Positions 1,882 through 47,682 of a stretch of DNA of 55,047 nt are shown one piece after another. The first letter of the stretch is position 1, and each line of letters starts with the position of its first letter. The stretch is taken from assembly GCA_030427295.1 (NCBI GenBank), contig JAUHWS010000003.1, positions 1 to 55,047 on the forward strand. The letters run 5' to 3'. The notes under the pieces were generated by a model. The model did not search any database. It saw nothing but the letters and a program-made list of their open reading frames with translations, and was not told the origin of the DNA. The DNA is from a bacterium. Its GTDB lineage: Bacteria > Patescibacteriota > Gracilibacteria > UM-FILTER-43-11. Made by a program: the position numbers and the translations under genes.

Positions 1882-2150
1882 GGGTATATACTTGAGGGCG
1901 AGGTGGGTATATACTTTTTTCTCAATGACCAATTTCCAATGTCGCAATATCCAAATAAAGCTGAATTCCGAATGTCTAATTTTTAAACATTATTTGGAAT
2001 AAAATAGCTTAAATAAAACAAATTCTAACTCATTTGAACATTAGAAATTCAAGTTTAAGATTTATTTGGAAAGTATTGATAAGTATTGGAGTGAATTGAG
2101 GTGAATTAAGACATAGGTATATAGATGGGGAGAAGGTGGGTATATACTTC
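1882..2150 (+). repeat. GTATATAC four-box element, copy 1 (type-B core)
   Basis: Boxes at 1884, 1907, 2117 (GTATATAG) and 2140. Confidence 0.9.
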
Positions 2151-2154
2151 ATTC

Positions 2155-2263
2155 CGGATCGTGGGCCGAGTCGTGAACCGAATAGTTACTTAAACTGAAT
2201 ATCAACCACCATGCGGCCAACAATACGGTCCACCATACGCTCCACGATTCGAAAACCATTCGC
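2155..2263. repeat. Degenerate 11-12 bp tandem repeats in inverted arrangement
   Basis: Units such as CTCCACGATTCG and GTCCACCATACG; same family reversed at 34941-34983. Confidence 0.55.
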
Positions 2264-2290
2264 TTCAGTAGTCCAAACCACTGACAGGAC

Positions 2291-2319
2291 TTGAAAAGAA
2301 GTCTATTTTTTGTTATAAT
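2291..2319 (+). promoter_or_regulatory. Sigma70-type promoter
   Basis: TTGAAA-17 bp-TATAAT with TG extension. Confidence 0.6.
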
Positions 2320-2339
2320 AAACTATTAATAAAACCATC

Positions 2340-3386
2340 ATGATCAATTTTAAAAATACATCCATTGTTGTCGGCGCTCTATTTCTGGGGTTAAGTAGCT
2401 ACTTGGCTTGGGATCAATATTTCCAGGATGCTCAAATTAGCTCAACAGATCCATCAGTGATCGAGGTCGATGAGGATCGTTTGAATCCTTCTGCACCAGT
2501 AGAAGAGGAGTTAGAGATGGCCTTTAGTCGAACAGGCCTGCGAACAAATACAGCCATTTCAAGCATCCCCCTTGCTGAAGTTTTATCGGGTGGACTTCCT
2601 AAAGATGGAATTCCAGCCATTTTAGAGCCCACATTTGTGACGGTTGAAGAGGCGTCGGAATGGCTGGATGATGAAGGGTTGGGCATTATTTACTCGAAAG
2701 GAGACACGACTCGATTTTATCCTTATGCGATTTTGTACTGGCACGAAATCACCAATGACACGGTGGAGGGGCGCAACATTGCGGTGACGTTTTGCCCGCT
2801 TTGTGGTTCGGCCTTGATCTTTGATCGCGGTGAGGATGTGTTTGGTGTGAGTGGAAAACTATGGGAATCGAATTTACTGATGTATGACCATGAAACCGAA
2901 ACCTTGTGGTCTCAGATTTTGGGGGAGGCCATGGTGGGTGATCGCACGGGGGAGACCTTGGAGATCTTGGATGCAAATGTGATTCGCTTTGCAGATTTAA
3001 AATCGACCTACCCGCAAGCTGACGTTCAATCGAAGGATACTGGGTATTCAAGACGTTATGGAGACAGTCCTTATGGGAATTATGAAACGAATAATGAGTT
3101 GTACTTTCCTATTTCCGAGGAGGATGATGCTTTTCAAAAAAAGGAACTCTTTCACATTGTGTATGTGGATGACCTTTCGGTTGGATTTTTACGATCAGAT
3201 CTGGCTGAAGTTGGAGCAGCTGAAGTCGAAGTGAATGGTCGGATGATCCGCGCTGAGATGTCTGAGGAGGGTCAAATCACGGTGACGGACATGGGCTCAG
3301 GCGAGCAACTGCCGGGCTTTGTCACCATGTGGTTCAGCTGGGTGACGCATATTGAGGGAGAACGGCTGGTGTGGGTCAAATCTTAA
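2340..3386 (+). CDS. DUF3179 domain membrane-anchored protein
   Basis: Motifs KDGIPAI, WHEITND, VTFCPLCGS, FGVSGKL..SNLLMYD..TETLWSQ; N-terminal TM. Confidence 0.85.
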   Translation: MINFKNTSIVVGALFLGLSSYLAWDQYFQDAQISSTDPSVIEVDEDRLNPSAPVEEELEMAFSRTGLRTNTAISSIPLAEVLSGGLPKDGIPAILEPTFVTVEEASEWLDDEGLGIIYSKGDTTRFYPYAILYWHEITNDTVEGRNIAVTFCPLCGSALIFDRGEDVFGVSGKLWESNLLMYDHETETLWSQILGEAMVGDRTGETLEILDANVIRFADLKSTYPQADVQSKDTGYSRRYGDSPYGNYETNNELYFPISEEDDAFQKKELFHIVYVDDLSVGFLRSDLAEVGAAEVEVNGRMIRAEMSEEGQITVTDMGSGEQLPGFVTMWFSWVTHIEGERLVWVKS

Positions 3387-3441
3387 AGCTTTTCATAAGT
3401 AGATAAAAATGGTATAATTATTTCTCTAATAATCTCTATTT

Positions 3442-4368: not shown

Positions 4369-4396
4369 GGTGTTGTAGGGCTATGGTAGCTTGCCC

Positions 4397-5395: not shown

Positions 5396-5421
5396 GCCGT
5401 TCTACTTAATTTAAATAAACT

Positions 5422-6582: not shown

Positions 6583-6608
6583 AAATATGAACGTTATGTG
6601 ATGATAAA

Positions 6609-6702: not shown

Positions 6703-6728
6703 TATTCCTGCACTTAACTTGAATTCAT

Positions 6729-9068: not shown

Positions 9069-9336
9069 GAAGTATATACTTACCTTCTGCCCAACTATAT
9101 ACCTAAGTCTTAAATTTCCAATTCACCCCAATACTCACCAATTCATTCCAAACAAATCCTAAACTTGAATTTCTAATGTCTAAATGATTTAGAATTTAAT
9201 TTATTTAAGCTGTTTATAATCAGAATAAGGTTTAAAAATAGAAGTCTTAGGCCTTGCGATTTAATTCGTAATTCGTAACTTGTAATTCGTAATTGAGACG
9301 AAAGTATATACCCACCTTCACTCGAAGTATATACCT
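9069..9336 (-). repeat. GTATATAC four-box element, copy 2 (type-B core)
   Basis: Boxes at 9072, 9095 (CTATATAC), 9304 and 9327. Confidence 0.9.
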
Positions 9337-9507
9337 AAGTCACCTATCATGAACACCCCTGCCCCCCTGCCTACCGGCCACAAAGTGGGGCCCTTGGTCC
9401 AGGCAGGACTCTTAGAGAGAGGGAATTGATTGTGAGACTAACTTACAATCAATTCTCCTTCTTCGAAGGGGTGCCCGGAGGGCGGGATAGTTTTTCCCAC
9501 CCCTCAA

Positions 9508-9537
9508 TGAAGGTGACATTAGCCAATGTCGCCTTCA
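9508..9537. repeat. 30-bp TGAAGG-type palindrome
   Basis: TGAAGGTGACATTAGCCAATGTCGCCTTCA. Confidence 0.8.
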
Positions 9538-9581
9538 GGTTAACTAGCGGTTTGGGACCAGTATATACCTAAGTGTACCAT

Positions 9582-9666
9582 TGTCATTCCATGGCTTGAC
9601 CGTGGAATCGTCTGAATTCAGTCCTTCTAAATTTAGACGACTCTTGGATCAAGTCCAAGAGTGACA
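9582..9666. repeat. REP-like bipartite hairpin element
   Basis: TGTCATTCC..GGAATCGTC...GACGACTC..GAGTGACA; copies at 14798 and 23009. Confidence 0.8.
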
Positions 9667-9686
9667 AACGGTTGTTTATTTTTCAA

Positions 9687-9716
9687 TGAAGGTGACATTG
9701 GCCAATGTCACCTTCA
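9687..9716. repeat. Perfect 30-bp palindrome
   Basis: TGAAGGTGACATTGG|CCAATGTCACCTTCA. Confidence 0.85.
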
Positions 9717-9744
9717 GGTTAACCTTCGTGCTAAAATGTTCACC

Positions 9745-14390: not shown

Positions 14391-14550
14391 GGGCAGGTAT
14401 CAATCTAAGTCAGGCGTCTTTTATAACAGTTATGTGGAGAATTGTCTAGGGGTTTGAATGACTTACGGATTATGAATGACGTAGTACGCATTATGCGTTG
14501 ACCGATCTTTTTTTCTTCGCACCTCGCACTTTGTACTTAGCACTTGAGAT

Positions 14551-14774
14551 GAAGTATATACTCACCCTCTCTTTAACTATATACCTACCCTCTTCAAAAA
14601 GCTGGGAGCTCGGAGCTGGTAGCTGATAGTTAAATTCAGTGAAGATACCTCTCTATTTGTCTTAAATAAGTGATAATTTAAGTTTTTCTAAATACCAACT
14701 AGTCTACCAGCTAAAGGCTAATAGCTACCAGCTCGAATAAAGTATATACCCACCCTCACATGAAGTATATACCT
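14551..14774 (-). repeat. GTATATAC four-box element, copy 3 (type-A core)
   Basis: Boxes at 14554, 14577, 14742 and 14765. Confidence 0.9.
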
Positions 14775-14797
14775 AAGTGTACAGTTTAAAGTACAGT

Positions 14798-14884
14798 TGT
14801 CATTCCATGACTTGATCATGGAATCGTCCGAATTCAGAACATCCAAATATAGACGACTCTAGGGTCTGACGCCCATGAGTGACA
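14798..14884. repeat. REP-like bipartite hairpin element
   Basis: TGTCATTCCATGA-TCATGGAATCGTC...GACGACTC...GAGTGACA. Confidence 0.8.
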
Positions 14885-14904
14885 CCTATTTCCTTGCTTC
14901 TTAA

Positions 14905-14934
14905 TGAAGGCGAGGATATATATCCTCGCCTTCA
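14905..14934. repeat. Perfect 30-bp palindrome
   Basis: TGAAGGCGAGGATAT|ATATCCTCGCCTTCA. Confidence 0.85.
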
Positions 14935-14991
14935 GGAGTTGATTAAATACTTCACTCAGAACCACCCCCTCACCATCAAATCACATTCAAG

Positions 14992-15033
14992 CCCCTCCCC
15001 CTCCTCATATGAGGAGGGGGACACAGGGGGAGG
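14992..15033. repeat. C-rich/G-rich palindromic module
   Basis: CCCCCTCCTCAT|ATGAGGAGGGGG followed by GGGGGAGGT; relatives near 9356-9490, 21790-21818 and 23111-23212. Confidence 0.65.
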
Positions 15034-15283
15034 TCCAGATCAAATGAATGGAATCATTCCGAACTTCAACATCCAAAACCATTCGTAAACCATTCCCCAA
15101 AGGGGCCCCGCTGGGGCGAACACTATACGCAGTCAATTCGCAACCCATCCGTCATCAAAGCATTGAAAAAAACTGAATTTTCAGGCAAAATGGTTTCTGT
15201 GCTGGGTCTATTGAGGATCTATTGTGGATCTTTAGATGCCTCAAAATCGACCGTCAGCTTACAAAGACCTTCTAAAGACATTC

Positions 15284-19098: not shown

Positions 19099-19211
19099 TA
19101 AATAAAGTACTAAAAAAGTACCTATTATATTTTACCTGAGTCGTCGAGGAAAATTAATTACGTAATTAATTTCAAATCATCCTCTAAAATAAGCTATTCT
19201 AAAAAATAATA

Positions 19212-21143: not shown

Positions 21144-21740
21144 ATGTTCACCGGCATCATCGAAAGCACCGGGCAGGTTCAGGCCAAGACCAGCAATACG
21201 CTGACCATCAAAATGAGTCAGGTGATGGAGGATTTGAAGATGGGGAGTAGCATTGCCGTGGATGGCGCCTGCTTGACCGTGACGAAACTGGGAAAGAAGC
21301 AGTTTACGGCCGATGTGATGCCCATCACTTTTGAGCGGACTGTGTTGGGAGAACGGAAGGTGGGTGACGAAGTGAATTTGGAGCGGGCCATGGAATACGG
21401 CAAACGTTTTGAAGGACACATGGTCAGCGGTCATGTGGAAGGTCGAGGCATCCTCAAAAAAATGCAACTGAAAGACAACGCCTATCATTTGGAATTTGAG
21501 GTGGATGAAACCTTGCAACCCTACATTGTTCGGACCGGCTCCATCACCGTCAATGGCATCAGCTTGACCGTGATTCAAGACACTGAAACCGGCTTTGAAG
21601 TCGGCATCATCCCCCACACCTGGGACCACACGAATTTGAAGCACCTACAAGTCGGTGATCAGGTGAATGTGGAGACAGACTTACTCGCAAAATATGCTCG
21701 TAAACTTTATTCTGTTGATCTAGCCGTTCAACAGGACTAA
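21144..21740 (+). CDS. ribE: Riboflavin synthase (alpha chain)
   Basis: MFTGIIE start, SIAVDGACLTV, VNLERA, GH.VSGHV, IIPHT. Confidence 0.95.
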   Translation: MFTGIIESTGQVQAKTSNTLTIKMSQVMEDLKMGSSIAVDGACLTVTKLGKKQFTADVMPITFERTVLGERKVGDEVNLERAMEYGKRFEGHMVSGHVEGRGILKKMQLKDNAYHLEFEVDETLQPYIVRTGSITVNGISLTVIQDTETGFEVGIIPHTWDHTNLKHLQVGDQVNVETDLLAKYARKLYSVDLAVQQD

Positions 21741-21896
21741 GGAGTATGGACTAAGGACTAAGTGAAAAACTATTCGTAATGAGATGATGCCCCCAGCCCC
21801 CTTTAGCAAGGGGGAGCCAAATACAGAATAAAACTATTCGTAAACTATTCGCAGCTATTCGTAACCCATCCGTAAACGATCCGTAACCCATCCGTA
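21735..21896 (+). repeat. GGACTAA heptamers, G/C hairpin and 11-bp tandem array
   Basis: GGACTAA-like x4, then AAACTATTCGT/AACCCATCCGT units abutting the ribH ATG. Confidence 0.75.
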
Positions 21897-22743: not shown

Positions 22744-22745
22744 AG

Positions 22746-22992
22746 GAAGTATATACTCGTCCTCTCCTCAACTATATACTCATCCCCGCCAAAATGCTGC
22801 GTGTCATCTCAGCACCCTTTTCAGTAAGCGATTAGCGAATAGCGAGTAGCGATTAGCTAGAATACAGCTTAAAATAGGACTCATCACTCACTACTAGCCA
22901 CTCACCACTATAAATAGGACTTAATCGTTACTCGCTATTCGTTAGTCCTTGAGAAGAAAGTATATACCCACCTCAACCCAAAGTATATACCT
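22746..22992 (-). repeat. GTATATAC four-box element, copy 4 (type-C core)
   Basis: Boxes at 22749, 22772, 22960 and 22983. Confidence 0.9.
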
Positions 22993-23008
22993 AAGTGTAC
23001 AGTACAGT

Positions 23009-23331
23009 TGTCATTCCATGACTTGATCATGGAATCGCCTGCATTCAGTCACTCCAAATTTGGACGACTCTAGGGTCAAGCCCTAGAGTGACAAATGGTT
23101 ATTTACCATTCAGGACCTGCCCCCTAAAAGCTATTCATCCATCAATCCCTTTCCCCCTCCCTGTGGAGGGGGACAATAAGATGGGTTTGATGGAGTAAAG
23201 GGGGAGGTCCTGATGGAATGAATAGAGTGATTCCGAGCTTCAAAATACAGACAACTCTAGGATCTGACGCCTTTGAGTGACATCTATTTCCTTGTTTCTC
23301 AATGAAGGGGAAGATATATTCTTCGCCTTCA
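23009..23331. repeat. Composite repeat block: REP-like element, G/C module, half REP, TGAAGG palindrome
   Basis: 23009-23093, 23111-23212, 23250-23282 and 23303-23331 match modules at 9582-9716 and 14798-15060. Confidence 0.75.
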
Positions 23332-23356
23332 GGTCATTTTTGGACGAGCATTCCCC

Positions 23357-30420: not shown

Positions 30421-32394
30421 ATGCCCAGAGCCATTGTGACCGGAAACGGAAATCTCCTCGCTTGTATCAATCAACACAATTTGATTGAGGATTTTTACTT
30501 CCCGTATGTGGGGATGGAAAATCAGATTGCCTTTGAACACTGGCATCGCTTGGGGGTGCATGTGGACCATCGCTTTTCGTGGTTGAGCGAGCCCAGCTGG
30601 ACCCATGAGATCGATTATTTGCATGAAACCTTGGTGACCGACAGTGTGGCTAAAAATGAGGAGCTACTTTTGACCATCAAATTCAATGATTTTGTTTATC
30701 CGAGTGAGGACTTTTTGATTCGAAAACTCTCCATCAAAAATAATGCTGATTATGATCGAGAATTGAAGGTTTATTTCAATCAAGACTTTCACTTATACGG
30801 CGATAAAATGCAGGATACGGCCTTTTATGAACCCGAACACCGCGCCATGGTTCACTATCGAAAGCGCCGATACTTTTGGATCAGTGGCATGCAAGGGTCT
30901 ATTAGCGGAGTGGATTCGTTCACGACGGGAAAAAGTGAGTACAATCATCTAGAGGGGACCTGGAAGGATGCTGAAGATGGTCATTTGCAAGAGCATCCCA
31001 TTGAACAAGGGTCGGTGGATTCGACGGTGGAGTTTCGGATGAATCTGAAGGCCAATCAAGAAAAACAATTGTATGTGTGGATTTGTGCGGGTAAAAACTT
31101 GTCGGAGGTGAAGCATTTGCATGACTACATTTTGAGTGAAAAGCCGGAAAAGTTGATGAACAATACCATTAATTATTGGATCAGTTGGGTGAATAAAGAA
31201 GCTCAACGGGAATTCTTGGTAGAACCCGAGCTCATGAAGCATTACAAACAAAGCCTTTTGATCATCCGGACTCAGATTGACAATCGAGGCGCCATCATCG
31301 CGGCAAATGACTCGGATATTATGAAATTTAATAAGGACACCTACTCGTACATGTGGCCTCGTGATGGGGCCTGGGTGAGCTTGGCCTTGGACCGAGCGGG
31401 TTACGGTGAAATCACCAAGCGTTTTTTTGCCTTCTGCGCCGATAGCATGACCGAGGATGGTTATCTCCTCCACAAATACAATCCGGATGAGTCGGTGGGT
31501 TCCTCATGGCATTCGTGGTATAAGGATGGTGAAATGCAACTGCCAATTCAGGAAGATGAAACCGCCATTGTGACTTACGCCTTGTGGAATCACTGGCTGT
31601 ATTATAAGGATATTGAGTTCATTCAAGACATGTATGAACCACTCATTCGAGCGGCTGGGAATTTTATGATGCATTTTATCGATGAGGAAACGGGCCTTCC
31701 CTTACCCACGTATGATTTGTGGGAACAGGAGCGTGGGGTTTTTACTTACACCACCGCTTGCGTGTACGCCGGCTTGGAAGCGGCTTATCGGCTTTCGGCA
31801 ATACTGGGCCACTTCAATCATTCGCATCGGTACAAGGAAGCGGCAGAGCGCATCAAGCAAGCCATGCTCACGCATCTTTATGATGCGGAGGAAGATCGTT
31901 TTTTGAAACGTATCGAAATCGACCCACACACCCGCGCGGTGACCAAGGATTATGGGCTGGATGCCAGTATGCATGCCGTGTGGATGATGGGCGTGTTGCC
32001 TGCGGAGGATGACATGGTGGTCAAAACAAATCGCGCCTTATTTGAGAAATTAAGTGTGAAGGAAGGGCCGATTGGAGGTTTGACTCGGAATGAACATGAT
32101 CATTATCAGCGCGTCCATGGGCACTATGGGGATGTTCAAGGAAACCCTTGGATCATCACGACCTTGTGGCACGCACAGTGGCTGATGGCCATTGCTAAAA
32201 ATAGAGAGGACTTGAAGGAGGCAGAAAAATACTTACATTGGGCGATTGAACGAGCCAACTCGGCCGGTATCATGCCTGAACAGGTGAATCCGTTTAACGG
32301 CGATCCCCTTTCGGTAGCCCCGCTGACTTGGAGTCACGCGACCTTTGTGGATTCGGTGTTGAAGTATGATGAGAGGATGAAGGAATTGTCTTAA
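30421..32394 (+). CDS. GH15 glucoamylase-like hydrolase
   Basis: YMWPRDG, QEDET, DLWEQ, MPEQV, PLTWSHA. Confidence 0.92.
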   Translation: MPRAIVTGNGNLLACINQHNLIEDFYFPYVGMENQIAFEHWHRLGVHVDHRFSWLSEPSWTHEIDYLHETLVTDSVAKNEELLLTIKFNDFVYPSEDFLIRKLSIKNNADYDRELKVYFNQDFHLYGDKMQDTAFYEPEHRAMVHYRKRRYFWISGMQGSISGVDSFTTGKSEYNHLEGTWKDAEDGHLQEHPIEQGSVDSTVEFRMNLKANQEKQLYVWICAGKNLSEVKHLHDYILSEKPEKLMNNTINYWISWVNKEAQREFLVEPELMKHYKQSLLIIRTQIDNRGAIIAANDSDIMKFNKDTYSYMWPRDGAWVSLALDRAGYGEITKRFFAFCADSMTEDGYLLHKYNPDESVGSSWHSWYKDGEMQLPIQEDETAIVTYALWNHWLYYKDIEFIQDMYEPLIRAAGNFMMHFIDEETGLPLPTYDLWEQERGVFTYTTACVYAGLEAAYRLSAILGHFNHSHRYKEAAERIKQAMLTHLYDAEEDRFLKRIEIDPHTRAVTKDYGLDASMHAVWMMGVLPAEDDMVVKTNRALFEKLSVKEGPIGGLTRNEHDHYQRVHGHYGDVQGNPWIITTLWHAQWLMAIAKNREDLKEAEKYLHWAIERANSAGIMPEQVNPFNGDPLSVAPLTWSHATFVDSVLKYDERMKELS

Positions 32395-32405
32395 TTTTTT
32401 AGGAT

Positions 32406-32629
32406 GGGTATATACTTGAGCGTGAGGTGGGTATATACTTTTTGGGAGCTGTTAGCTATTAGCTTTTAGCTGGTAGACTAGTCGGTATTTAGGATAACCC
32501 AAATTACCTCTTATTTAAGATAAGTAGAGAGTTATCTTAACTGAATTTAACTATCAGCTACCAGCTCTGAGCTCCCAGCTTTTTTCAGAGGATAGGTATA
32601 TAGTTGGGAAGAAGGTAAGTATATACTTC
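32406..32629 (+). repeat. GTATATAC four-box element, copy 5 (type-A core)
   Basis: Boxes at 32408, 32431, 32596 and 32619. Confidence 0.9.
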
Positions 32630-32651
32630 TAAAATCTGCTACAATGTTCTC

Positions 32652-33362
32652 ATGCACCCAAAAAATGCTCACGACATTGTTGGCCAAGTGAAAGCGTCTT
32701 ACAAAGCGATTGCAGGTGAATTTGATCAGACGCGACAGCGGCCCTGGACGGAGTTTGAGGGGTTTTTGGGATATATAAAAAAAGGAGCTAGAGTGCTCGA
32801 TTTGGGCTGTGGTAATGGGAGGTTGTGTGGTTTTTTAGAACAAAAAGAAGTGGAGTATGTGGGAGTCGATCACAATGAAGCCCTGCTGAAGAAAGCTCAA
32901 GAAAACCACCCAAATGCCATATTTGAGCACGCGGATATGGTGAATTTAGAATTGGATGATGAGAGGTTTGACAACGTGTTCTGCATTGCGGCCTTTCACC
33001 ATATTCCCAGCAAGCCATTGAGGAAGAAGGCGCTTAAGGACATTCATCGTTCCCTTAAAAAAGATGGGGTGTTGATTTTGACCACCTGGAACCTGTTTCA
33101 GTGGAAGTATGTGCGGGAGTGGCTCAAAGGTATCGGCCGGAGCATCCTGACTTTGGGGCGAAAAGGGACTTGGAATGACCTGTGGATCAAGTGGGGGAAA
33201 TATCCTCTCAAGCGCTATTATCACAGTTTTTTACCGGGGGAACTGAGACGATTATTTAAAAGTGATGAGTGGACCGTGGAAGCGTTTTACTTTACAAAAA
33301 AAGGGAAAATGGTAAAATTTCTTAGTGCTTATAATATTATTGTGATCGCTCGAAAAAAATAA
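32652..33362 (+). CDS. Class I SAM-dependent methyltransferase (Trm9/ALKBH8-like)
   Basis: Y..IA.EF..TR..PW, VLDLGCGNGR, IAAFHH, RYYH. Confidence 0.88.
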   Translation: MHPKNAHDIVGQVKASYKAIAGEFDQTRQRPWTEFEGFLGYIKKGARVLDLGCGNGRLCGFLEQKEVEYVGVDHNEALLKKAQENHPNAIFEHADMVNLELDDERFDNVFCIAAFHHIPSKPLRKKALKDIHRSLKKDGVLILTTWNLFQWKYVREWLKGIGRSILTLGRKGTWNDLWIKWGKYPLKRYYHSFLPGELRRLFKSDEWTVEAFYFTKKGKMVKFLSAYNIIVIARKK

Positions 33363-33370
33363 CCTTAAAC

Positions 33371-34225
33371 ATGAGTCAAAAAGTAGACATTGCTGGCGTA
33401 AAATTTGATGCCGTCCGCTACGACGATGTGATCACGGCGGTGGAAGTGTTTGTGAGCCAAACCCACCAAAAACACATGATCGCCACGCCGAACCCCGAGA
33501 TGGTGGTGGATGCCAGTCAGCGCAACAGTTTTAAGAATTTGTTGAATTCAACCGCCATGCTCGTGCCCGATGGCATTGGAATTTTGTGGGCCTCATATTA
33601 TCTATCCCTTCCATATAAAAAAAATCGAGTGACGGAGTGGGTTCAACGTTGGAGCAGTTTACTAAAAGTTTTCTTCAAGCACTCGGATATTTACAGCATT
33701 TTGCCACAGCGGGTGACAGGTTCGGATTTGCTCTTTAAAATTGTGGACGCGTCTCAGCGCAATCATTGGCAAATCTATTTGTTGGGAGCGGCGCCAGGCA
33801 TTGCTTCGATTGCCATTGATCGATTGCTCCAGAAATATCCCGACGCGATTTTTGCAGGCAGTTTTGCGGGCACTCCTGCCGAAACCCACGAAGATGAGCT
33901 CTGTGAACGAATCAATCAAGCCCAGCCAGACATTTTGTTTGTCGCCTATGGCAGTCCGGCCCAGGAGGAGTGGATCCATCGGAACTTGGACAAGTTAGAC
34001 ACCGTGAAAGTGGCGATTGGTGTGGGGGGGGCCATCGATTTTGCTGCCGGAAAAGCAAAGCGGGCTCCGAATTGGATGCAGAAAATGGGTTTGGAATGGT
34101 TATGGCGATTGATCCGGCAACCCCGTCGTTACAAACGGATTTGGAATGCCACCTTTCGGTTCATCAAACTGATTCGGAAATACAAAAAAGTGTGTCATCA
34201 AGTAGAAAAGAAGGCCAAAGCCTAA
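33371..34225 (+). CDS. WecB/TagA/CpsF glycosyltransferase
   Basis: TPNPE, PDGIG, RVTGSDL, GSPAQE, GVGG..DF, GLEWLWRL. Confidence 0.93.
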   Translation: MSQKVDIAGVKFDAVRYDDVITAVEVFVSQTHQKHMIATPNPEMVVDASQRNSFKNLLNSTAMLVPDGIGILWASYYLSLPYKKNRVTEWVQRWSSLLKVFFKHSDIYSILPQRVTGSDLLFKIVDASQRNHWQIYLLGAAPGIASIAIDRLLQKYPDAIFAGSFAGTPAETHEDELCERINQAQPDILFVAYGSPAQEEWIHRNLDKLDTVKVAIGVGGAIDFAAGKAKRAPNWMQKMGLEWLWRLIRQPRRYKRIWNATFRFIKLIRKYKKVCHQVEKKAKA

Positions 34226-34298
34226 CTCGAGTTTCTGGCTTTTTTGATCATTTTTTGTTACAAATGGACTAATGAGCATTCTCTTAAAACCGTGATCC

Positions 34299-34895
34299 AT
34301 GCTGCAAGACTTTCCGGGCCGAAAGCCCGATGAACATGTCATCATGATCATTCGCAAACACCCAATTGTGTTCATCAGTCGTGTGTTGGTTTTTTTATTG
34401 ATATCCATTTTACCCCTGGCCATCTTTCTTTATTTTTGGTCGCGCAGTTATCCTATCGCATCCGGCACGTTGATAGGGGTGACAGGTTATTTGATCGCCT
34501 TGATGTATTTTTTGGGTACCCTGATGGCCCTTCTGATTTCGTGGCTCAACGAGGAATTCGATTTGTTTATTTTAACGGATCACCGCCTAATCGACATTAC
34601 CCAGATCAACTTTTTGAAGCGTGAAGTGGCTGCCACTCCCCTGTCTCAAATTCAGGATAGTACGGGCGATATTCAAGGTTTTTTTGGGACCCTATTGAAT
34701 TATGGAGAAATTAAAATTCGAACGGCGGCTGGCCGAGGTAGCAGCTTCATTATTGATCGCGTGCCTGACCCGGATATTTTGGCGAGAAAAATTTTGAATT
34801 ATGCTCACGAGAGCAAAGAGATGCATGGTGTGATTGAACATGAAGAAGCTGCTCCAGACAATGTGACAGCAGAAGAAGGACTTCAAAATATTTAA
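34299..34895 (+). CDS. Membrane protein with bacterial PH-like domain
   Basis: E.VI.IIRKHP, two TM helices, LTD.R.IDI, L..IQD, NYG...I.TA. Confidence 0.75.
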   Translation: MLQDFPGRKPDEHVIMIIRKHPIVFISRVLVFLLISILPLAIFLYFWSRSYPIASGTLIGVTGYLIALMYFLGTLMALLISWLNEEFDLFILTDHRLIDITQINFLKREVAATPLSQIQDSTGDIQGFFGTLLNYGEIKIRTAAGRGSSFIIDRVPDPDILARKILNYAHESKEMHGVIEHEEAAPDNVTAEEGLQNI

Positions 34896-34940
34896 AGGAT
34901 GGTCTTTCTGATTGAGAAATGGTATTTTGGCTTCCCTATT

Positions 34941-35052
34941 GTGGAGCGAACCGTGGAGCGAATGGTGGGCCGAATTGTTGGTTTTTAAACTGTGCTTCTT
35001 CCACCATTCACATCCAATTCGTAATTTGTAATTAGTAACTCGTAATTTGTAA
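34941..35052. repeat. 12-bp array plus TCGTAAT heptamer array
   Basis: GTGGAGCGAACC-like units, then TCGTAAT/TTGTAAT x5 ending just before the next ATG. Confidence 0.65.
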
Positions 35053-35058
35053 TCAGGT

Positions 35059-37029
35059 ATGGCCGAAGCAGCCCGAAAAATCGAAGGGATTGATGCGGAC
35101 GATGAAAATCCAGAGAAAATTCGGGAGCGCGAAGAGATGGATGACATTCGGGATCAGATCAGTGACGTGGCGGATCAATCGCTGCAAGAAGGAGTGATCG
35201 ATTTGGAAGCCCATCGTTTTTACAAACAGCTTTCTCGAGGCCAGGCGGTGAGTAAGGAATTGGAGAAAAAAGACAAGCTGAAAGGCATGCTGGATTTTGC
35301 CAAGGAATATGCCATCAAGTCGATCAAGATTCAACAAAAACTCGAAAAAGAAGTGCCGGCCAATGATGGAAAGTATTTGATGGAAAAGTTGGTGACAGAC
35401 AACATCGATTTTATGAAACAAGCCGATGCGGTGGATCGTTTGATTAACGAAAAAATTGACCGCATCAAACAAGATATTAAATTATTTGGTGAGTTGAGTG
35501 ATCATCCCTATACGAAGGAGTTAAGCATAACCGTCTCGGATAAAATCAAATTGGGGGATGAGAAGAGTTTTTTGGAAGCCAAGACTCCTGATCGTCGGGC
35601 TTTTTTGAAAGCAGTTCAAGAGCTTTTTTGGAAGAAGGAAGTGGAGGAGGCCATGGATGAAAAAAATGCCGAAAAACTCACGCGGATTTATGAAGCGAAA
35701 CTACGACGACGATTGTGTAATTCTCAAGGAAAAAATGGTTCGATGGGTCAGAAGACCTTTAATGCCTTTCTGGAGGGTTTCAAGCAAATGGCGGAAGAGA
35801 AGAATTTTGTGGGGATGGAATACTGGCACAAGGATTTTGAGAACCAGATGAAAGATCGGGATGCATTTTTTGATGAAATGCGCCACACCGTCAGAGAAGA
35901 TGGCTTGCGCGAGTTGGAAGGGAGCGTTCATTTTATTGGCTTTACGGAGTTAAAAGAGCGCTACAAAGCCATGCTCAAGCCTGACTCAAAAGAATCCAAG
36001 CGGCTGGAGAATCAGTATGGGGGAAAATTGGAAGAATACCGCAACGTCTGCGCTAGTGACCACAGTATCAAAGCCTTTAAGGAATGGTTCGCCGCCTTGC
36101 CGCTGAAAGGCAGATACACCGCTCGAGATCGGATTGATACTTATGAAGGCATGGGAAGGCTCATGGAACAGTGGGAGCGGATCAAAAAACTACCACCCGA
36201 ACAGCAGTTGTTTATGGAGCAGAAGCGAGATGATCCCAATGCGAATTGGGGCTACACTGAATTCCAAAAACAACTGGAGGAATTTGAAAGGCAGGGGGTG
36301 GGGGTGAATCTTGAGTCAGCGGAAGCCGAGGAAGCCCTGGCTGGCTTGAATGATTCGGAAAAACGGGCCGTTTTGAGTGCTCGAAAAGTGTTGATGAAAC
36401 TGGGCCAAACCAATGTAGATCAGATGGCACAGGTGATTCACTTTATGACCGATGGTTTATCTCAAGCTCAAATCGACCAGATGGATCATGATCAAGAGGT
36501 GGCGGCCGAAATTGAACGGCTTGAAGCCGAGCAGGAGTCTCTGATTGAGCCATCGGCCAATCAAGCAGATTATCGGCTGCGAGAGGTGCCCACTCCGGTT
36601 CAAAATGAGTTAGAGGAGATGGCTCAAGAGGAAGATGCGGAGGTTGATCCAGCCCTTGAAATTGATGAAAGGACGGATAACAACCATCCTGAAGCGGAGC
36701 AGGAAAAACTGAAGCGACTGGAACGGTCAGAAGAATTGAAGGTGAGCAAAGTGAGCGCCTTTAAGAAGGTTCAAAACCGACAAGGCGAACGGAACATGGA
36801 AGTGATGGTGAATGATATGGAGAGCGCCCGCAGTTTTGCTATGGAGGATAATCGCAAGGCGGTCCGCTCAGAAGCGCGAGGGGGGAAAGATAAGGTGTCG
36901 TTTACCTTTGACATGGGGAGCGGCAAACGCAAGTTCAATGCCAAAAGTTTGAATGCCTTAGAGAAACTCCTACGGGCCAAACGCTCCGCGAATGATTCGA
37001 ATTATGGAAATGTGGACAAGGCGTCTTAG
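35059..37029 (+). CDS. Hypothetical charged helical protein
   Basis: 656-aa E/K-rich ORF; no motif recognised. Confidence 0.8.
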   Translation: MAEAARKIEGIDADDENPEKIREREEMDDIRDQISDVADQSLQEGVIDLEAHRFYKQLSRGQAVSKELEKKDKLKGMLDFAKEYAIKSIKIQQKLEKEVPANDGKYLMEKLVTDNIDFMKQADAVDRLINEKIDRIKQDIKLFGELSDHPYTKELSITVSDKIKLGDEKSFLEAKTPDRRAFLKAVQELFWKKEVEEAMDEKNAEKLTRIYEAKLRRRLCNSQGKNGSMGQKTFNAFLEGFKQMAEEKNFVGMEYWHKDFENQMKDRDAFFDEMRHTVREDGLRELEGSVHFIGFTELKERYKAMLKPDSKESKRLENQYGGKLEEYRNVCASDHSIKAFKEWFAALPLKGRYTARDRIDTYEGMGRLMEQWERIKKLPPEQQLFMEQKRDDPNANWGYTEFQKQLEEFERQGVGVNLESAEAEEALAGLNDSEKRAVLSARKVLMKLGQTNVDQMAQVIHFMTDGLSQAQIDQMDHDQEVAAEIERLEAEQESLIEPSANQADYRLREVPTPVQNELEEMAQEEDAEVDPALEIDERTDNNHPEAEQEKLKRLERSEELKVSKVSAFKKVQNRQGERNMEVMVNDMESARSFAMEDNRKAVRSEARGGKDKVSFTFDMGSGKRKFNAKSLNALEKLLRAKRSANDSNYGNVDKAS

Positions 37030-37033
37030 GGTG

Positions 37034-37280
37034 GAGGTATATACTCACCCTCTGCCCAACTATATACCTATCCTCTTCAGAATGCTGGGGTTCATCTCAG
37101 TACCTTTTTCAACAAGCGATTAGCGAATAGCGAGTAGCGATTAGCTGAAATAGATCTTAGAATAGAGCTAGACGCTATACACTGATCGCTACACGCTCAA
37201 AAAATCAACTCGTAATTAGTCACTCGTAATTCGTAATTAAGAATAAAGTATATACCCACCTCAACCCAAAGTATATACAC
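37034..37280 (-). repeat. GTATATAC four-box element, copy 6 (type-C core)
   Basis: Boxes at 37037, 37060, 37248 and 37271; fills the gap between convergent genes. Confidence 0.9.
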
Positions 37281-37302
37281 AAGTATGCAGCGGAAGTGAG
37301 AA

Positions 37303-38544
37303 CTACCCCACCGTCGACCCAATATAAAAGAAAGGCAGCATCACGGCCATCAAAATGGAGCCGACGAGGGCGGCGACGATGAAAATCATGATGGGTTCGA
37401 TGAGGGTGGAGATGTTGCGGAGGGAGTAGTCGATGCTCTTGCGATAATTAGCTTTGATCTTTTCGAACATCTGAGGAATTTTCCCGGTGGTCTCGCCAAT
37501 GTGCATCAGTTGAGCCACTTGCAGTGGGAAGAGCTTGTGTTTTTTGAATTTTTGTTCTCGGATGTCGATGAGCCCCATCAACTGACTGACTTCTTGCCCC
37601 ATCACGACGCCTTTTCTTAGGTCTTCAATCGCATGTTGGTAGTGTAGGTTACTCAAGGTTCGTTTGGTGATGGCAAAGGCCTCGGTAATGAGCACCCCAC
37701 TGCGCATGAGCATGGCCATGTTGGAAGCAATCATCATGAGGTTTTTTTCGCGGTTGATCCGGCCAATGATGGGGAGTGCCCCCACCATGGATTCTCCGAT
37801 CCAGCGACCGGGTTTGAATTCGGCGAAGAAGAGGTAGAGTAAAATACATCCTCCCACAATACTCAAAATGAGGATGGGCCATTTTGCCACGATGAAATCA
37901 CTAATGTTGATGACTCCCTGTGTTAAAGCTGGCAAACTGACTTGGGCTTGGTCGTACATCTCGGCAATCTTGGGGATGACAAAAATCATCATCCCGGCGA
38001 CGAGGCCGATCGCCAAGACAATCAGGATGATGGGGTAGACCATCGCCCCGGTGATCTTGCGATGAAAATCCTGACTCGCTTCCATTTCTTCTACGAGATC
38101 CGAAAGGACCTCTTTTAAATTCCCACTGGCTTCGGCGGCTTCGACCAAGGCGGATTGCATGGTGGGAAAAACATGGGGGAAGAATTCCATTGCTTCGGCC
38201 AAACTCAGCCCTGCATTGATGTCATGAATCATGTGGGCGTAGAGTTTTTTGACCGTCTTATTTCGCTCTTGGGCTTGAATAAGCGAAAGGGAGTCGATGA
38301 GCGGCACGCCCGACCCCACCAAAGTGGCGAGCTGGTCATAAAAACTGAGTCGTTGCTTGTGACTGAAGTGTAAGTGCCGGAGAGAAAACGGTAATTTGGC
38401 GTTCTTAATTCGCTCTCTTTTTTCAATTTTTTTCCGCGTTTGTTCATCGAGCATGTCGACCCCAGCCAAGGGTTTGCTGGCGGGATCCTGAGTGACAGGA
38501 GGGACGGGATTTTCCGGTGCTGTTTTTTTGGAAAATAAGTTCAT
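37303..38544 (-). CDS. pilC: Type IV pilus platform protein (T2SS F family)
   Basis: QLATLVGSGVP, E.SGNL, AMVYP, GE.TG, LIEPI. Confidence 0.93.
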   Translation of the reverse strand: MNLFSKKTAPENPVPPVTQDPASKPLAGVDMLDEQTRKKIEKRERIKNAKLPFSLRHLHFSHKQRLSFYDQLATLVGSGVPLIDSLSLIQAQERNKTVKKLYAHMIHDINAGLSLAEAMEFFPHVFPTMQSALVEAAEASGNLKEVLSDLVEEMEASQDFHRKITGAMVYPIILIVLAIGLVAGMMIFVIPKIAEMYDQAQVSLPALTQGVINISDFIVAKWPILILSIVGGCILLYLFFAEFKPGRWIGESMVGALPIIGRINREKNLMMIASNMAMLMRSGVLITEAFAITKRTLSNLHYQHAIEDLRKGVVMGQEVSQLMGLIDIREQKFKKHKLFPLQVAQLMHIGETTGKIPQMFEKIKANYRKSIDYSLRNISTLIEPIMIFIVAALVGSILMAVMLPFFYIGSTVG

Positions 38545-41859: not shown

Positions 41860-41871
41860 CTGTTTTTTGTA

Positions 41872-42057
41872 AGGACTAAGGACTATGGACTAAGAACTAA
41901 GCGTTAAACTATTTGTGAGACAATTCGCAACCCATTCGTAAACTATTCGTAAACCATTCGTAAACTATTCGTAAACCATCCGTAAACTATTCGTAAACCA
42001 TCCGTAAACTATTCGTAAACCATCCGTAAAACAACTCGTCATTAGTAACTCGTCATT
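41872..42057 (+). repeat. GGACTAA heptamers plus about 11 units of an 11-bp tandem repeat
   Basis: Alternating AAACTATTCGT / AAACCATYCGT at 41906-42027. Confidence 0.9.
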
Positions 42058-42076
42058 AAAAATAGCTATCCGAAAC

Positions 42077-44440: not shown

Positions 44441-44513
44441 TGGGAGGATTTTATTTCCGTTTGAAAAAGGATCAGGAAGTACGCTACAATGAGGGCGAAA
44501 ACTTAAAAAAAAG

Positions 44514-45014: not shown

Positions 45015-45038
45015 TTTTAAAAAATAATTAAAAAAGGT

Positions 45039-45764: not shown

Positions 45765-45793
45765 TCTCATTGATTTTCAAAAAACTTCATTTA

Positions 45794-45820
45794 AGACCGG
45801 AGCTTCTTCCGGTCTTTTTT
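45794..45820 (+). terminator. Intrinsic terminator
   Basis: AAGACCGGA-loop-TCCGGTCTT then T-run. Confidence 0.8.
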
Positions 45821-45899
45821 GTAGGTGAGCATGAATCCCTCCAAATTATTGAAAAGATTGTGTAGAATGGTGAAGTATGATGTAACCCTATCCATTGCT

Positions 45900-47369
45900 A
45901 TGAAAAAGATCCGCGTTCGTATTGCCCCCTCTCCGACGGGACTGCTGCATATTGGAACTGTCAGAGTGGCGCTTTATAATTACCTTTTTGCCAAACAGAA
46001 TGACGGGGATTTTGTGCTGCGGATTGAAGATACGGACAAAGTTCGAAGTACGAAAGAATATGAAGAGGACATCATCAGTGGCTTACAAAATTTAGGCATT
46101 GGAGGCAATGAAGGACCGCATGTGGGAGGTGATTATGGACCGTATCGTCAATCGGAACGGACGGAGATTTATGTGAAATATCTCAAGCAATTGCTGGAGG
46201 AGGATAAAGCCTACTTTTGTGCCTGTAGTAAGGAGCGCTTGGAGGAAATGCGAGAGGTTCAACGGGCGGCCAAAAAACCAACCCGTTATGATGGAAAATG
46301 CCGAGGGGCTGGGGAGAGCTCTGGCGTGGTTCGTTTAAAAATCCCAGAGGATCGGGGTGACATCACGTGGGAAGATCTGATTCGAGGAAAAACCACGATT
46401 CATGCCAAAGAATTGGATGATTTTGTCATCGCTCGTTCTGCGGAGGATCCTTTGTTTCATTTTACCGTCGCAACGGATGATCATGAAATGCAGATCAGTC
46501 ATGTGATTCGGGGAGAAGACCATGTGAGTAACACCCCGAAGCATATTTTGATTTTTGAGGCATTTGGATGGGAGCTGCCAAAATTTGGTCACTTGCCCCT
46601 CATTTTGAATGAAGACAAGACTAAAATGAGCAAACGCAAGAACAAGGTATCGGTGGATGACTATTTGGCGGAGGGATATTTGCCTGCAGCCATCCTGAAC
46701 TTTTTGGCGTTGTTGGGATGGAACACGGGAGATGAACAGGAAATTTTTAGCTTGGAGGAGCTGGTCGAGAAGTTTAGCTTGGAGCGGGTGCACAAATCTG
46801 GAGCCGTGTTTGATTTGAAAAAATTGGATTGGATCAATGGGGAGTACATCAAAAAAAATATTGCCCAGGACATCGACGGGTTTTATGAAATGGTGAAACT
46901 CTTCATCAAAGGGTCAGAGTTCGACACGCAAAGTGCGGAGGGTGAAGCCTTGATCAAAAAAATCCTGCAGGATCCTGATTTTGAAGGACGCTTTAAAAAG
47001 CTATCGGAGTTGGAAGAGGGATTGTCACCTCTTTTTGCTGAACTGCCGGATTACCCGTATGAATTGATCGCTCGGGAGAAGTTTAAAATCACCGCCGAGA
47101 TACTGAAAGAGGTACTTGAAAAAGCCATTGAAAAGGTGGAAGCGCTGGAGTGGGACAAGGGAGACGGCACCAAAAATCAAGATATTTCGGAGGCCTTTGT
47201 GAGTATTGTTGGAGAACTCAGCCTTAAAAATGGCCAAGTCCTCTGGCCCATTCGGGTCGCGCTGTCTGGATTAGAACGTTCGCCTAATTTTGCTACCCTG
47301 GCGGTGTATTTGGGGAAGGAGGAGGTATTGAAGCGTTTAGAGGTGGCTTTGGGAAAGATTGAAGGGTGA
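45900..47369 (+). CDS. gltX: Glutamate--tRNA ligase
   Basis: RIAPSPTG.LHIG, LRIEDTD, IRGEDH, KMSKR. Confidence 0.97.
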   Translation: MKKIRVRIAPSPTGLLHIGTVRVALYNYLFAKQNDGDFVLRIEDTDKVRSTKEYEEDIISGLQNLGIGGNEGPHVGGDYGPYRQSERTEIYVKYLKQLLEEDKAYFCACSKERLEEMREVQRAAKKPTRYDGKCRGAGESSGVVRLKIPEDRGDITWEDLIRGKTTIHAKELDDFVIARSAEDPLFHFTVATDDHEMQISHVIRGEDHVSNTPKHILIFEAFGWELPKFGHLPLILNEDKTKMSKRKNKVSVDDYLAEGYLPAAILNFLALLGWNTGDEQEIFSLEELVEKFSLERVHKSGAVFDLKKLDWINGEYIKKNIAQDIDGFYEMVKLFIKGSEFDTQSAEGEALIKKILQDPDFEGRFKKLSELEEGLSPLFAELPDYPYELIAREKFKITAEILKEVLEKAIEKVEALEWDKGDGTKNQDISEAFVSIVGELSLKNGQVLWPIRVALSGLERSPNFATLAVYLGKEEVLKRLEVALGKIEG

Positions 47370-47384
47370 TCATTTAATTTCTTA

Positions 47385-47446
47385 TGTCATCTTCGGACTT
47401 TTTCCGGAGAACTAGTTTAGACTCCTGGGACAAGTCCGAGAGTGAC
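47385..47446. repeat. Degenerate REP-like element
   Basis: TGTCAT...GACTC..CAAGTCC.AGAGTGACA. Confidence 0.6.
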
Positions 47447-47449
47447 ATT

Positions 47450-47682
47450 GGGGTGTGGGGTGGGTATATACTTTCCTCTCAATTACGAATTACGAGTTAC
47501 GAATTACGAATTAAATCGCAAGGCCTAAGACTTCTATTTTTAAACCTTATTCAGATTCTAAATAGCTTAAATAAAACAAATTTTAACTCATTGAGTACCT
47601 GCCTGCCGGCAGGCAGGTTGGAATGAATTGGGGTGAATTAAGACATGAGTATATAGATGGAGAGAGGGTGAGTATATACTTC
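47450..47682 (+). repeat. GTATATAC element, copy 7 (three boxes, type-B core)
   Basis: Boxes at 47464, 47649 and 47672; position of the first box occupied by the REP end. Confidence 0.85.

Follow-up and report, generated by a model that had tools for sequence, protein, structure and literature searches.

Bacterial interspersed mosaic elements and REP/REPIN sequences are high-copy, modular, hairpin-forming intergenic repeats located at the 3' ends of genes, and some of them are bound by host proteins. Pneumococcal BOX elements have the architecture boxA-boxB(n)-boxC, in which the conserved end modules can pair around a variable middle, and occur in about 100 copies in a small genome; we know of no transposase associated with them. 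The palindrome-associated elements derived from IS200/IS605 transposons leave no target-site duplication, possess direct ends capable of forming hairpins and display strand asymmetry, while the attC sites of integrons contain four boxes, of which the outer and inner pairs come together in the folded strand, leaving unpaired spacers and a variable hairpin top. Regulators are few in small uncultured bacteria whose genomes are reduced, and little work has been done on the non-coding DNA of these organisms.

A precedent of another kind is MraZ, a single-chain SpoVT/AbrB-like protein whose subunits bind cooperatively, one per box, to the four repeated boxes that precede its own operon (PMC12957436).

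The DNA analyzed here (the window) is a stretch of 55,047 nucleotides from a gracilibacterial contig, in which an earlier note had described seven intergenic copies of a four-box element. A scan of the window with the pair motif GTATATA[CG]-N15-GTATATAC recovered all seven at the places given, with matches at 1884, 2117, 9072, 9304, 14554, 14742, 22749, 22960, 32408, 32596, 37037, 37248 and 47649, and the motif occurred in none of 100 shuffled versions of the window. The octamer GTATATAC itself is present 21 times, versus 0.12 expected; the seven elements contain 20 of these, and the remaining one stands by itself as a solo box. Together with GTATATAG, which constitutes the third box of all seven elements, the 20 account for the 27 boxes previously counted. 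The copy strands (+, -, -, -, +, -, +), the box-pair spacing of 23 bp, the TTT and TTC tails and the divergence of the N15 spacers among the copies were likewise described correctly. The cores do differ, as had been claimed, but instead of simply diverging they belong to discrete families: copies 1, 2 and 7 belong to family B, copies 3 and 5 to family C, and copies 4 and 6 to family A.

Copy 1 (1884..2147, + strand, 264 bp, family B) has its left unit at 1884-1914 and its right unit at 2117-2147; a family-C core lacking units (~1727-1881) lies directly upstream, resulting in a tandem core-unit-core-unit array. In copy 2 (9072..9334, - strand, 263 bp, family B) the right and left units occupy 9072-9102 and 9304-9334, respectively. 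The solo GTATATAC box (9561..9568, - strand) immediately follows a copy of the upstream repeat module ending in ...CACTTAG and has no attached element. Several of the copies are enclosed by larger mosaics of other repeats. Copy 3 (14554..14772, - strand, 219 bp, family C) is part of a 610-bp mosaic (14463-15072), and copy 4 (22749..22990, - strand, 242 bp, family A) of a 595-bp mosaic (22739-23333), whose upstream modules (22991..23333, - strand) comprise a GAAGGCGA-type hairpin, a GTCACTC...GAGTCGTC hairpin and a GATTCC-hairpin-GGAATGACAAC...CACTTAG module. Copy 5 (32408..32626, + strand, 219 bp, family C) stands alone, with repeated DNA confined to 32395-32638, and its box 1 begins 13 nt past the stop of the ORF at 30421-32394. 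Copy 6 (37037..37278, - strand, 242 bp, family A; repeated DNA 37028-37290) also stands alone, with its right end 7 nt away from the stop of the ORF at 35059-37029. Finally, in copy 7 (47464..47679, + strand, right unit 47649-47679), which has a family-B-like core, the end of an upstream repeat module replaces box 1 and its spacer, leaving a single left box at 47464.

Extending the scan to the genome assembly (1.48 Mb in 98 contigs, 92% complete and fragmented at repeats) revealed 111 left and 100 right double-box units. Paired up, they make 85 complete elements, which measure 212-287 bp and are without exception intergenic, with 0/85 overlapping rough gene calls, in addition to 23 left and 14 right orphan units, many of which are at contig ends. 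In each element two 31-bp double-box units in direct orientation flank one core of 150-200 bp, the left unit being GTATATAC-N15-GTATATAC and the right unit GTATATAG-N15-GTATATAC; this spacing is seen in 322 strand-counted matches genome-wide, versus 12 for N14 and one for N16. The hairpin-prone cores belong to four families unrelated to one another (34 copies of A, 23 of B, 15 of C and 12 of D, plus one singleton), and all four carry the same end units. Some units and cores are joined in tandem unit-core-unit-core arrays, some ends have one box only, some boxes stand solo, and the upstream modules seen at copy 4 precede 42 of the 85 elements. The elements are enriched in convergent gaps (22 versus 12.1 expected; chi-square p = 0.006), and in 25 of 46 cases the right end is <=17 nt from the stop of the convergent gene.

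The family as a whole comprises roughly 110-125 copies of non-coding mosaic repeats restricted to one species, and fills about 1.4% of the genome in this species-level lineage. None of the 40 relatives scanned, of which two belong to the same genus, contained the pair motif, and a stricter version yielded only single chance-like matches across 185,579 species genomes. In a metagenome scan the strict motif was present on 32 contigs, several of which contain 23-bp tandem arrays, and none of the 32 carried the four-box element. The earlier impression that the element is undescribed is supported by the lack of a match in Rfam (at gathering score, for either strand of the 55-kb window) and in plasmid and phage records, and by literature searches, which, at the level of search results, produced no description of such repeats in this group and only primers or unrelated text for the octamer.

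In their modular, high-copy intergenic hairpins the elements are akin to the mosaic elements and the REP-REPIN-RAYT systems, and the genome does contain RAYT-like genes. However, REPINs are inverted REP doublets, whereas the elements described here have direct end units and invariant octamers. With the BOX elements they share pairable conserved ends, a variable middle and a count of about 100 copies in a small genome, but the sequences are unrelated, and here four unrelated cores are mounted on one pair of end units that probably contain an operator.

The feature that sets the boxes apart is their conservation. In a box-blind scan, for which units were located by a spacer weight matrix only, with a score threshold, both boxes were perfect in 193 of 211 units, 16 units had one mismatch and two had two or three, although the matrix was trained on exact-box units and the seed elements were chosen by exact boxes. 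This amounts to 21 mismatches in 3376 sites, or 0.6%, against a difference of ~17% from consensus in the spacers (identity 0.815) and cores (0.838), at whose rates an 8-mer would remain intact with a chance of 0.19-0.24. A recent burst cannot explain the intact boxes, because the median identity of a core to its nearest relative is only 0.85-0.89. Since the boxes are far better kept than the spacers and cores, and no recent burst is indicated, they appear to be under selection. Hence, the genome-wide comparison lends support at the sequence level to the earlier proposal that they are selected protein-binding sites. Strong selection at every one of about 440 sites is not what a decoy or sponge role would lead one to expect, a point that weighs against the binding-site reading.

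A candidate for the binding protein emerged from boxes outside the dispersed elements. New here are five promoter-like loci with triple boxes at 11-bp spacing (C3:9870, C3:14891, C9:7952, C45:25657 and C90:6229), one of which precedes the gene for a 110-aa protein (G000:C9:8002-8334, outside the window). The boxes of this locus end 20 nt before the start codon and overlap a promoter-like TTGACT-17-TATATA site, so that repeated boxes lie directly upstream of the putative regulator's own gene at C9:8002. The protein matches Pfam PF04014 in two stretches (E = 4.3e-13) and, weakly, CDC48_N; none of the four other small neighbors of triple boxes that were scanned had a Pfam match. Comparison of its predicted model (pLDDT 83.4) with a second structural aligner placed MraZ chains on top (Z 11.9-12.5, rmsd 2.1-2.4 A over 94-95 of 110 residues), the next match having a Z of 6.7, while Foldseek gave none at E <= 0.001 and the sequences of solved structures none at E <= 0.1. 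The protein is thus predicted to combine two SpoVT/AbrB domains in one chain with an MraZ-like fold.

The likeness to MraZ (PMC12957436) would extend from the two SpoVT/AbrB-like halves in one chain to the arrangement of short boxes, which are spaced by about one helical turn and immediately precede the gene of the protein itself. It differs in the box, which is GTG(G/T) in MraZ as described there and an 8-bp palindrome here, accompanied by ~400 further boxes in dispersed repeats. The present protein also differs in having 110 aa and no Pfam MraZ match, and in the location of its gene, which is next to a glyoxalase-like gene and away from the cell-division cluster.

In a protein atlas the 110-aa protein retrieved single-domain SpoVT-AbrB clusters only (scores 0.83-0.84), which serve as leads only. 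Among 18 loci of single-domain relatives, one of which is a paralogue in the same genome, about 11 were seen by eye to have palindromes repeated in tandem, two or three times, immediately ahead of the start codon, such as AATTACGTAATT twice, ATACGTAT three times or TGAACGTTCA twice. Full-length matches to the tandem protein were found in 0/40 relatives and 0/400 genomes of the class; the boxes are absent from the same 40 relatives, a co-occurrence that concerns a single lineage and is not statistical. This tandem SpoVT/AbrB protein, with three boxes in its own promoter, is a concrete candidate for the DNA-binding gene that the earlier note suggested looking for. From the position of the gene and the analogy with MraZ we infer that GTATATAC may be the operator of the 110-aa protein, though the triple boxes could in principle be element remnants instead.

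On balance, we consider it probable, by a modest degree, that the elements are species-restricted mosaic repeats which spread non-autonomously, and whose boxes are the operator of the 110-aa protein and are kept by selection for binding. Each dispersed element would offer the protein two pairs of sites, the members of a pair being 23 bp, or about two helical turns, apart. Drift would alter the spacers and cores, whereas the boxes would be held perfect by selection for binding. The elements would be non-autonomous DNA that entered short intergenic gaps next to the 3' ends of genes without target-site duplication, and the dispersed copies might later act as substrates for rearrangement. If the binding is real, bacteria would provide here a clear example of a regulator's sites being distributed to about 100 gene ends by an amplified repeat, with each site selected, and the 110-aa protein and its 8-bp site form a pair that is directly testable in E. 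coli. Many contigs of the assembly end at these elements, and at least one inversion is marked by them, which matters for reconstruction of genomes from metagenomes.

A simpler account would be that the elements are plain non-autonomous transposons of the MITE or PATE type, with the boxes serving only as recognition sites of a transposase, for example a Y1 enzyme of the HUH class acting on folded single strands, and with the promoter triple boxes being unrelated or remnants of elements. The ~100 amplified modular copies in four core families that share their ends do imply duplicative spread, and the earlier statement that these are selected sites rather than MITEs goes too far in this respect. 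Its observation that there is no target-site duplication holds: with k = 2-8 and 16 x 16 boundary offsets for 85 elements, the best excess was ~5/85 at k = 2. Nor are there terminal inverted repeats, as only the 8-bp palindromic box reads as inverted, and the flanking bases and 15-nt spacers at the two ends are in direct orientation. In these respects, and in a strand asymmetry for which composition may account, the elements are comparable to the IS200/IS605 derivatives. Furthermore, in the minimum-energy folds of 69 of the 85 elements box 1 is paired with box 4, as a would-be stem with a 15-nt loop; in 79 of 84 elements the forward strand gives the more stable fold; and the solo-box sites resemble products of excision or deletion. 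The genome also encodes Y1 proteins, namely one IS200-type TnpA, a second Y1-like pair and four RAYT-like proteins, with the C-terminal part of a fifth encoded at the end of a contig.

However, none of these appears to be cognate to the elements. The only IS200 copy in the assembly (C40:400-915) has unrelated CCCCG...CGGGG hairpins at both ends. The immediate flanks of the four RAYT-like genes and of the second Y1-like pair lack GTATATAC boxes; the latter has no repeats in its flanks at all, while a different, GAAGGCGAGG-type hairpin is found upstream of two of the four RAYT-like genes (partly degraded) and inside RAYT-like genes, and on both sides of such a gene in a same-genus relative. A search with the pattern GAAGGCGAGG-N6-CCTCGCCTTC matched nothing, even in this genome, and is uninformative, N6 being the wrong loop length. 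RAYT-like genes are present in 24 of the 40 relatives, all of which are without boxes. As had been noted for the window, no cognate transposase was seen genome-wide among the seven families searched; rve, DDE_Tnp_1, TnpB and reverse transcriptase were not found in the assembly, and a degraded IS1595-like gene on C9 has ends without boxes. No copy in the assembly was found to enclose an ORF, transposase-like or other. A parent element or transposase could be missing, because the assembly is 92% complete and broken at repeats; contigs from four sequencing runs stop at the elements, and there is not one that spans an empty site. With core identities of 0.85-0.89 to the nearest relative, the boxes are kept far beyond neutral decay, and we regard transposition alone as an unlikely explanation.

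A bolder extension of the operator reading, which we hold to be quite doubtful, is that the 110-aa MraZ-fold protein and its ~440 dispersed boxes make up a new protein-DNA system, in either of two versions. In the first, oligomers of the protein would hold together the two double-box units from which each hairpin-prone core rises, resulting in structured, silenced or insulated gaps at gene ends throughout the genome, with the host dependent on every site. In the second, the protein would be the DNA-recognition subunit of an undescribed form of DNA mobilization without target-site duplication. As the box is palindromic, a folded single strand in which box 1 pairs with box 4 contains the identical duplex box again, so that one protein could recognize the duplex form as well as the hairpin form.

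The greater stability of the forward strand points to action at the single-strand or RNA level and is superfluous to a model of duplex binding. In the RNA version, transcription of the G+T-rich strand would make the elements into structured RNAs or terminator cassettes, with the boxes as basal stems (1 with 4, and 2 with 3). The 11-14 G-U pairs of the forward strand, versus 3-7 on the reverse, the location of elements tight against stops, their enrichment in convergent gaps, and the T-runs that follow the left unit and the family-C hairpin would suit such a role. However, the composition of the strand alone favors the forward fold, tandem-gene gaps show no orientation bias (25 elements co-oriented versus 17; p = 0.28), within-family covariation exceeds that of shuffles in family A only, and Rfam is silent on the window. 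A promoter and terminator scan of 32300-37400 gave counts at shuffle level. A stem would need no invariant sequence, and the lack of compensatory variants among ~400 boxes favors sequence readout over stem pairing, making an RNA function very unlikely.

Copies 5 (+) and 6 (-) bound a block of four genes (32627..37036; genes 32652-37029) whose orientation is the reverse of that seen in the gene order of three relatives. The two copies differ in core, so any crossover would have fallen in the shared units. An apparent un-inverted form, suggested by an 'opposite strands' joint at 32447/37240, was rejected, one side being only 39 nt long and equal to the shared left unit; we read this joint as cross-mapping of another copy. 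That a dedicated recombinase performs inversion or cassette exchange at the boxes is highly improbable: the exact bounding of the inversion by two inverted copies, the tandem arrays, one-box ends and solo boxes, and the resemblance of the direct end repeats to attL and attR would fit, but any dispersed repeat can mediate inversions through homologous recombination, so that the inversion is no proof of a dedicated enzyme, the two Xer-like proteins, the phage-type integrase with its fragments and the large serine recombinase of this genome are not linked to the elements, two 8-bp palindromes 15 bp apart fit no core-site type known to us, and ~100 pre-existing target sites would be needed. The elements do resemble attC in their four pairable boxes, unpaired spacers and variable hairpin top, but they occur singly on many contigs between housekeeping genes and have 15-nt spacers; neither an intI context nor a cassette array was seen, the tyrosine recombinases found being Xer-like or phage-type.

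The role in chromosome organization akin to matS/parS that had been suggested in the earlier note is not supported by conservation across relatives, given the distributions of the motif (0/40) and of the full-length tandem protein (0/400). Within the window, the strands of the seven copies are mixed although the GC skew is positive in all but one 2-kb bin. A KOPS-like polarity is rejected on the same mixture of strands, a CRISPR-like array by 'spacers' that are 150-200 bp long and repeated, and a Shine-Dalgarno role for the purine-rich spacers by the presence of copies in every orientation to genes. Used as a DNA query against 25 relatives, copy 4 with its modules gave short matches only, to heptamer repeats, and in a same-genus genome the boxes are absent and the heptamer-repeat hairpin is present. 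The one metagenome array that was inspected (L034) is a eukaryote-like satellite beside mariner-like fragments.

The four-box feature is real and strongly non-random. Each element is an intergenic repeat in which a left and a right unit, in direct orientation, flank a hairpin-prone core, a unit being two 8-bp boxes (boxes 1-4 from left to right) around a 15-nt spacer. The pair motif GTATATA[CG]-N15-GTATATAC is present in the window at all seven places where the earlier note had put a copy, and had 0 matches in 100/100 shuffles of the window; GTATATAC itself occurs 21 times against 0.12 expected. Twenty of these 21 lie inside elements and, with seven GTATATAG third boxes, account for the 27 boxes previously counted; copy 7 is without its first box. 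Alignment of the seven copies revealed conserved ends and cores of three kinds. Repeated DNA spans ~400-660 bp around four of the seven copies and 406 bp around copy 7, and copies 5 and 6 stand alone.

The host assembly (1.48 Mb, 98 contigs, 43% G+C, 92% completeness; relatives range over 0.7-1.9 Mb) contains 111 left-type and 100 right-type units, forming 88 left-right pairs. The window is contig C65 of this assembly, and the host is probably one of the candidate-phyla bacteria with reduced genomes. Eighty-five of the pairs measure 212-287 bp, their lengths peaking near 219, 242 and 264 bp, and host genes or a tandem array lie within the remaining three; 23 left and 14 right units have no partner, many of them at contig ends. 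A 15-nt spacer dominates, with 322 strand-counted matches as opposed to 12 for N14 and one for N16. Clustering divides the cores into families A (n=34), B (n=23), C (n=15) and D (n=12) plus a singleton, with consensus end units common to all families; variants include unit-core-unit-core-unit tandem arrays, one-box ends and solo boxes.

To avoid circularity in gauging box conservation, units were located by a weight matrix built only on the spacer, after which the flanking 8-mers were read. In this box-blind scan 193 of 211 units showed two perfect boxes, 16 departed from the box sequence at one position and two at two or three positions, so that mismatches affect 21/3376 sites (0.6%). Identity to consensus was 0.815 in spacers and 0.838 in cores, rates at which an intact 8-mer would be expected only 19-24% of the time; some spacer positions are nevertheless kept at >=95%, others toggling between G and A. 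The outcome that the earlier note had named as refuting, boxes kept no better than spacers, was not obtained, and the boxes are under selection. Cores have a median identity of 0.85-0.89 to their nearest relative (maximum 0.90-0.95 in families A-C, with one near-identical pair in D), and the copies are therefore not young.

A candidate for the protein that reads the boxes came from those standing outside units. Of 373 genomic GTATATAC copies, 37 are without a partner box 23 bp away, and 15 of these make up five triple boxes with 11-bp spacing, all in promoter-like gaps (contig positions C3:9870, C3:14891, C9:7952, C45:25657 and C90:6229). The C9 triple box, which overlaps TTGACT-17-TATATA, stops 20 nt short of the start codon for a 110-aa protein (C9:8002-8334, outside the window) composed of two SpoVT/AbrB repeats, with Pfam PF04014 matching in two stretches (E = 4.3e-13). 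Its predicted model (pLDDT 83.4) aligned best to MraZ chains (Z 11.9-12.5, rmsd 2.1-2.4 Å, 94-95 residues), among them MraZ bound to a four-box promoter, the next structural match being at Z 6.7; Foldseek returned no match for the model at E <= 0.001. No full-length homologue was found in 40 relatives or 400 class genomes. The account in PMC12957436 describes MraZ as a single-chain SpoVT/AbrB-like fold that binds cooperatively to four copies of a box upstream of the operon to which its gene belongs, each box taking up one subunit. By analogy, MraZ would be a mechanistic precedent for the tandem protein, in both its SpoVT/AbrB-like fold and the repeated boxes before its own gene. Element boxes and triple boxes agree in their neighbouring bases, with T-R-G ahead of the box and TT behind it, and GTATATAC is probably the operator of this lineage-specific MraZ-fold protein.

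Single-domain relatives of ~55-60 aa occur in 19/400 class genomes. Among 18 loci examined, including a paralogue in the host genome, two or three tandem palindromes were seen by eye just before the start codon in ~11, for example AATTACGTAATT twice, TTTACGTAAA and ATACGTAT three times each, and TGAACGTTCA twice. It therefore holds as a rule across the class that a small AbrB-type gene is preceded by its own tandem palindromes, of which GTATATAC would be the tandem protein's version. The earlier idea of a protein-binding site gains support, and a candidate protein is available for testing it. At C3:14891-16098 another of the triple boxes precedes a 64-aa ORF and then aspartate carbamoyltransferase-like and dihydroorotase-like genes, names read from their N-termini, which hints that pyrimidine synthesis belongs to the protein's predicted regulon.

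Each dispersed element would offer the tandem protein two pairs of its boxes 23 bp apart, and our best guess is that the protein clamps or silences these T/A-rich, hairpin-prone inserts where genes end. By rough gene calls, no element overlaps a gene (0/85), the right end lies <=17 nt from the stop of a convergent gene in 25/46 cases, and the left end <=25 nt from that of a co-oriented gene in 18/48. Convergent gaps are enriched (22 observed, 12.1 expected), divergent gaps hold 8 against 12.3 (chi-square p = 0.006), and tandem gaps show no orientation bias (25 versus 17). Across the 85 elements, conserved bases immediately flanking the boxes contain stop codons: box 1 is preceded by TAG on the element strand, and box 4 is followed by TTCA or TTA, read from the opposite strand as TGA or TAA. 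Many neighbouring genes terminate exactly at these codons. Folding favoured the forward strand in 79/84 elements and covariation is weak, in family A only, which leaves room for action at the single-strand or RNA level.

Among bacterial interspersed mosaic repeats, a known class, four-box elements form a new family, which differs from the others in having invariant palindromic octamers that match the probable operator of the lineage-specific protein with the MraZ fold. As far as sequence comparison indicates, the family is restricted to the host lineage. The pair motif was found in 0/40 relatives, two same-genus genomes among them; a stricter pattern gave six single matches in unrelated taxa among 185,579 species (one genome each) and matched 32 metagenome contigs, none with the four-box element; and blastn of plasmid and phage records gave no element match. 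Five metagenome loci (L032, L034, L038, L021, L030) carry tandem arrays of a 23-bp unit with GTATATAC; one inspected array is a satellite in eukaryote-like DNA adjoining mariner-like fragments and appears unrelated to the element.

Roles in chromosome organisation and recombination are speculative. Three relatives have the 413-aa gene (window 37303-38544) and after it, in the same orientation, the 236-aa gene (32652-33362) with its neighbours; relative to these, window block 32652-37029 is inverted, and its ends are copy 5 (+) and copy 6 (-). The recombinases found in the genome comprise Xer-like proteins, a single phage-type integrase and a single large serine recombinase.

As for transposition, the reported lack of target-site duplications and of a transposase was upheld, with no duplication at the elements and no copy enclosing a transposase-like ORF. 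The assembly yielded no rve, DDE_Tnp_1, TnpB or reverse transcriptase, and the ends of its one IS200-type TnpA are CCCCG hairpins unrelated to the element ends. Four RAYT-like Y1 genes (C41:2926-3504, C4:4661-5212, C45:8703-9398, C73:49659-50132) are present, as is the C-terminal part of a fifth, located at a contig end; each of the four has a perfect hairpin repeat, TGAAGGCGAGG...CCTCGCCTTCA, inserted in frame. The RAYT-associated hairpin (GAAGGCGAGG...) differs from the element boxes, lies upstream of 2/4 genes, flanks the RAYT-like gene of a same-genus genome (locus L064) on both sides, and heads many repeat mosaics adjoining four-box elements; together, genes and hairpin look like a REP-RAYT pair. 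RAYT-like genes occur in 24/40 relatives, all without boxes, and the flanks of a second Y1-like pair contain no repeats. A degraded gene (C9:6084-6714, minus strand), which from its motifs we take to be an IS1595-like transposase, lies about 1.3 kb upstream of the gene for the tandem AbrB-type protein; it retains the zinc-ribbon N-terminus and, in a different frame, part of the C-terminus, the catalytic core being missing.

Three recurrent hairpin-built modules lie upstream of 42/85 elements, and downstream flanks are often heptamer-repeat modules. Since a same-genus genome carries a core-A-like heptamer-repeat hairpin without boxes, the cores may be older than the units. Upstream modules in the window (22991-23333, 14773-15072, 9335-9720) hold a hairpin, GTCACTC-stem-GAGTCGTC, without an Rfam match; its stems vary between copies yet pair (CTAGGG/CCCTAG, CTTGGA/TCCAAG, CCAAGG/CCTTGG), which points to an independent structured element. 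Boxless tandem arrays of a CGTAAAC[CT]AT[TC]-type heptamer or 14-mer (41869-42063, 21733-21900) have many genomic copies elsewhere (up to 158 blast hits). At C76 ~6659 (GTATATGC) and at window 9561, the one GTATATAC there outside an element, an upstream module is followed by one box and this directly by the downstream module; such solo-box sites may have arisen by deletion between direct boxes or may be unoccupied.

The single-domain AbrB-type paralogue (C88:771-944) is preceded by AATTACGTCATT/AATTACGTAATT. Its 12-mer palindrome recurs as doublets at about a dozen genomic loci, resembling an ordinary small regulon, and on sequence the two look like a second candidate regulator-operator pair. 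The window holds one single copy of this palindrome (19157-19166), and its half-site is similar to the AATTACG heptamers of cores A and B.
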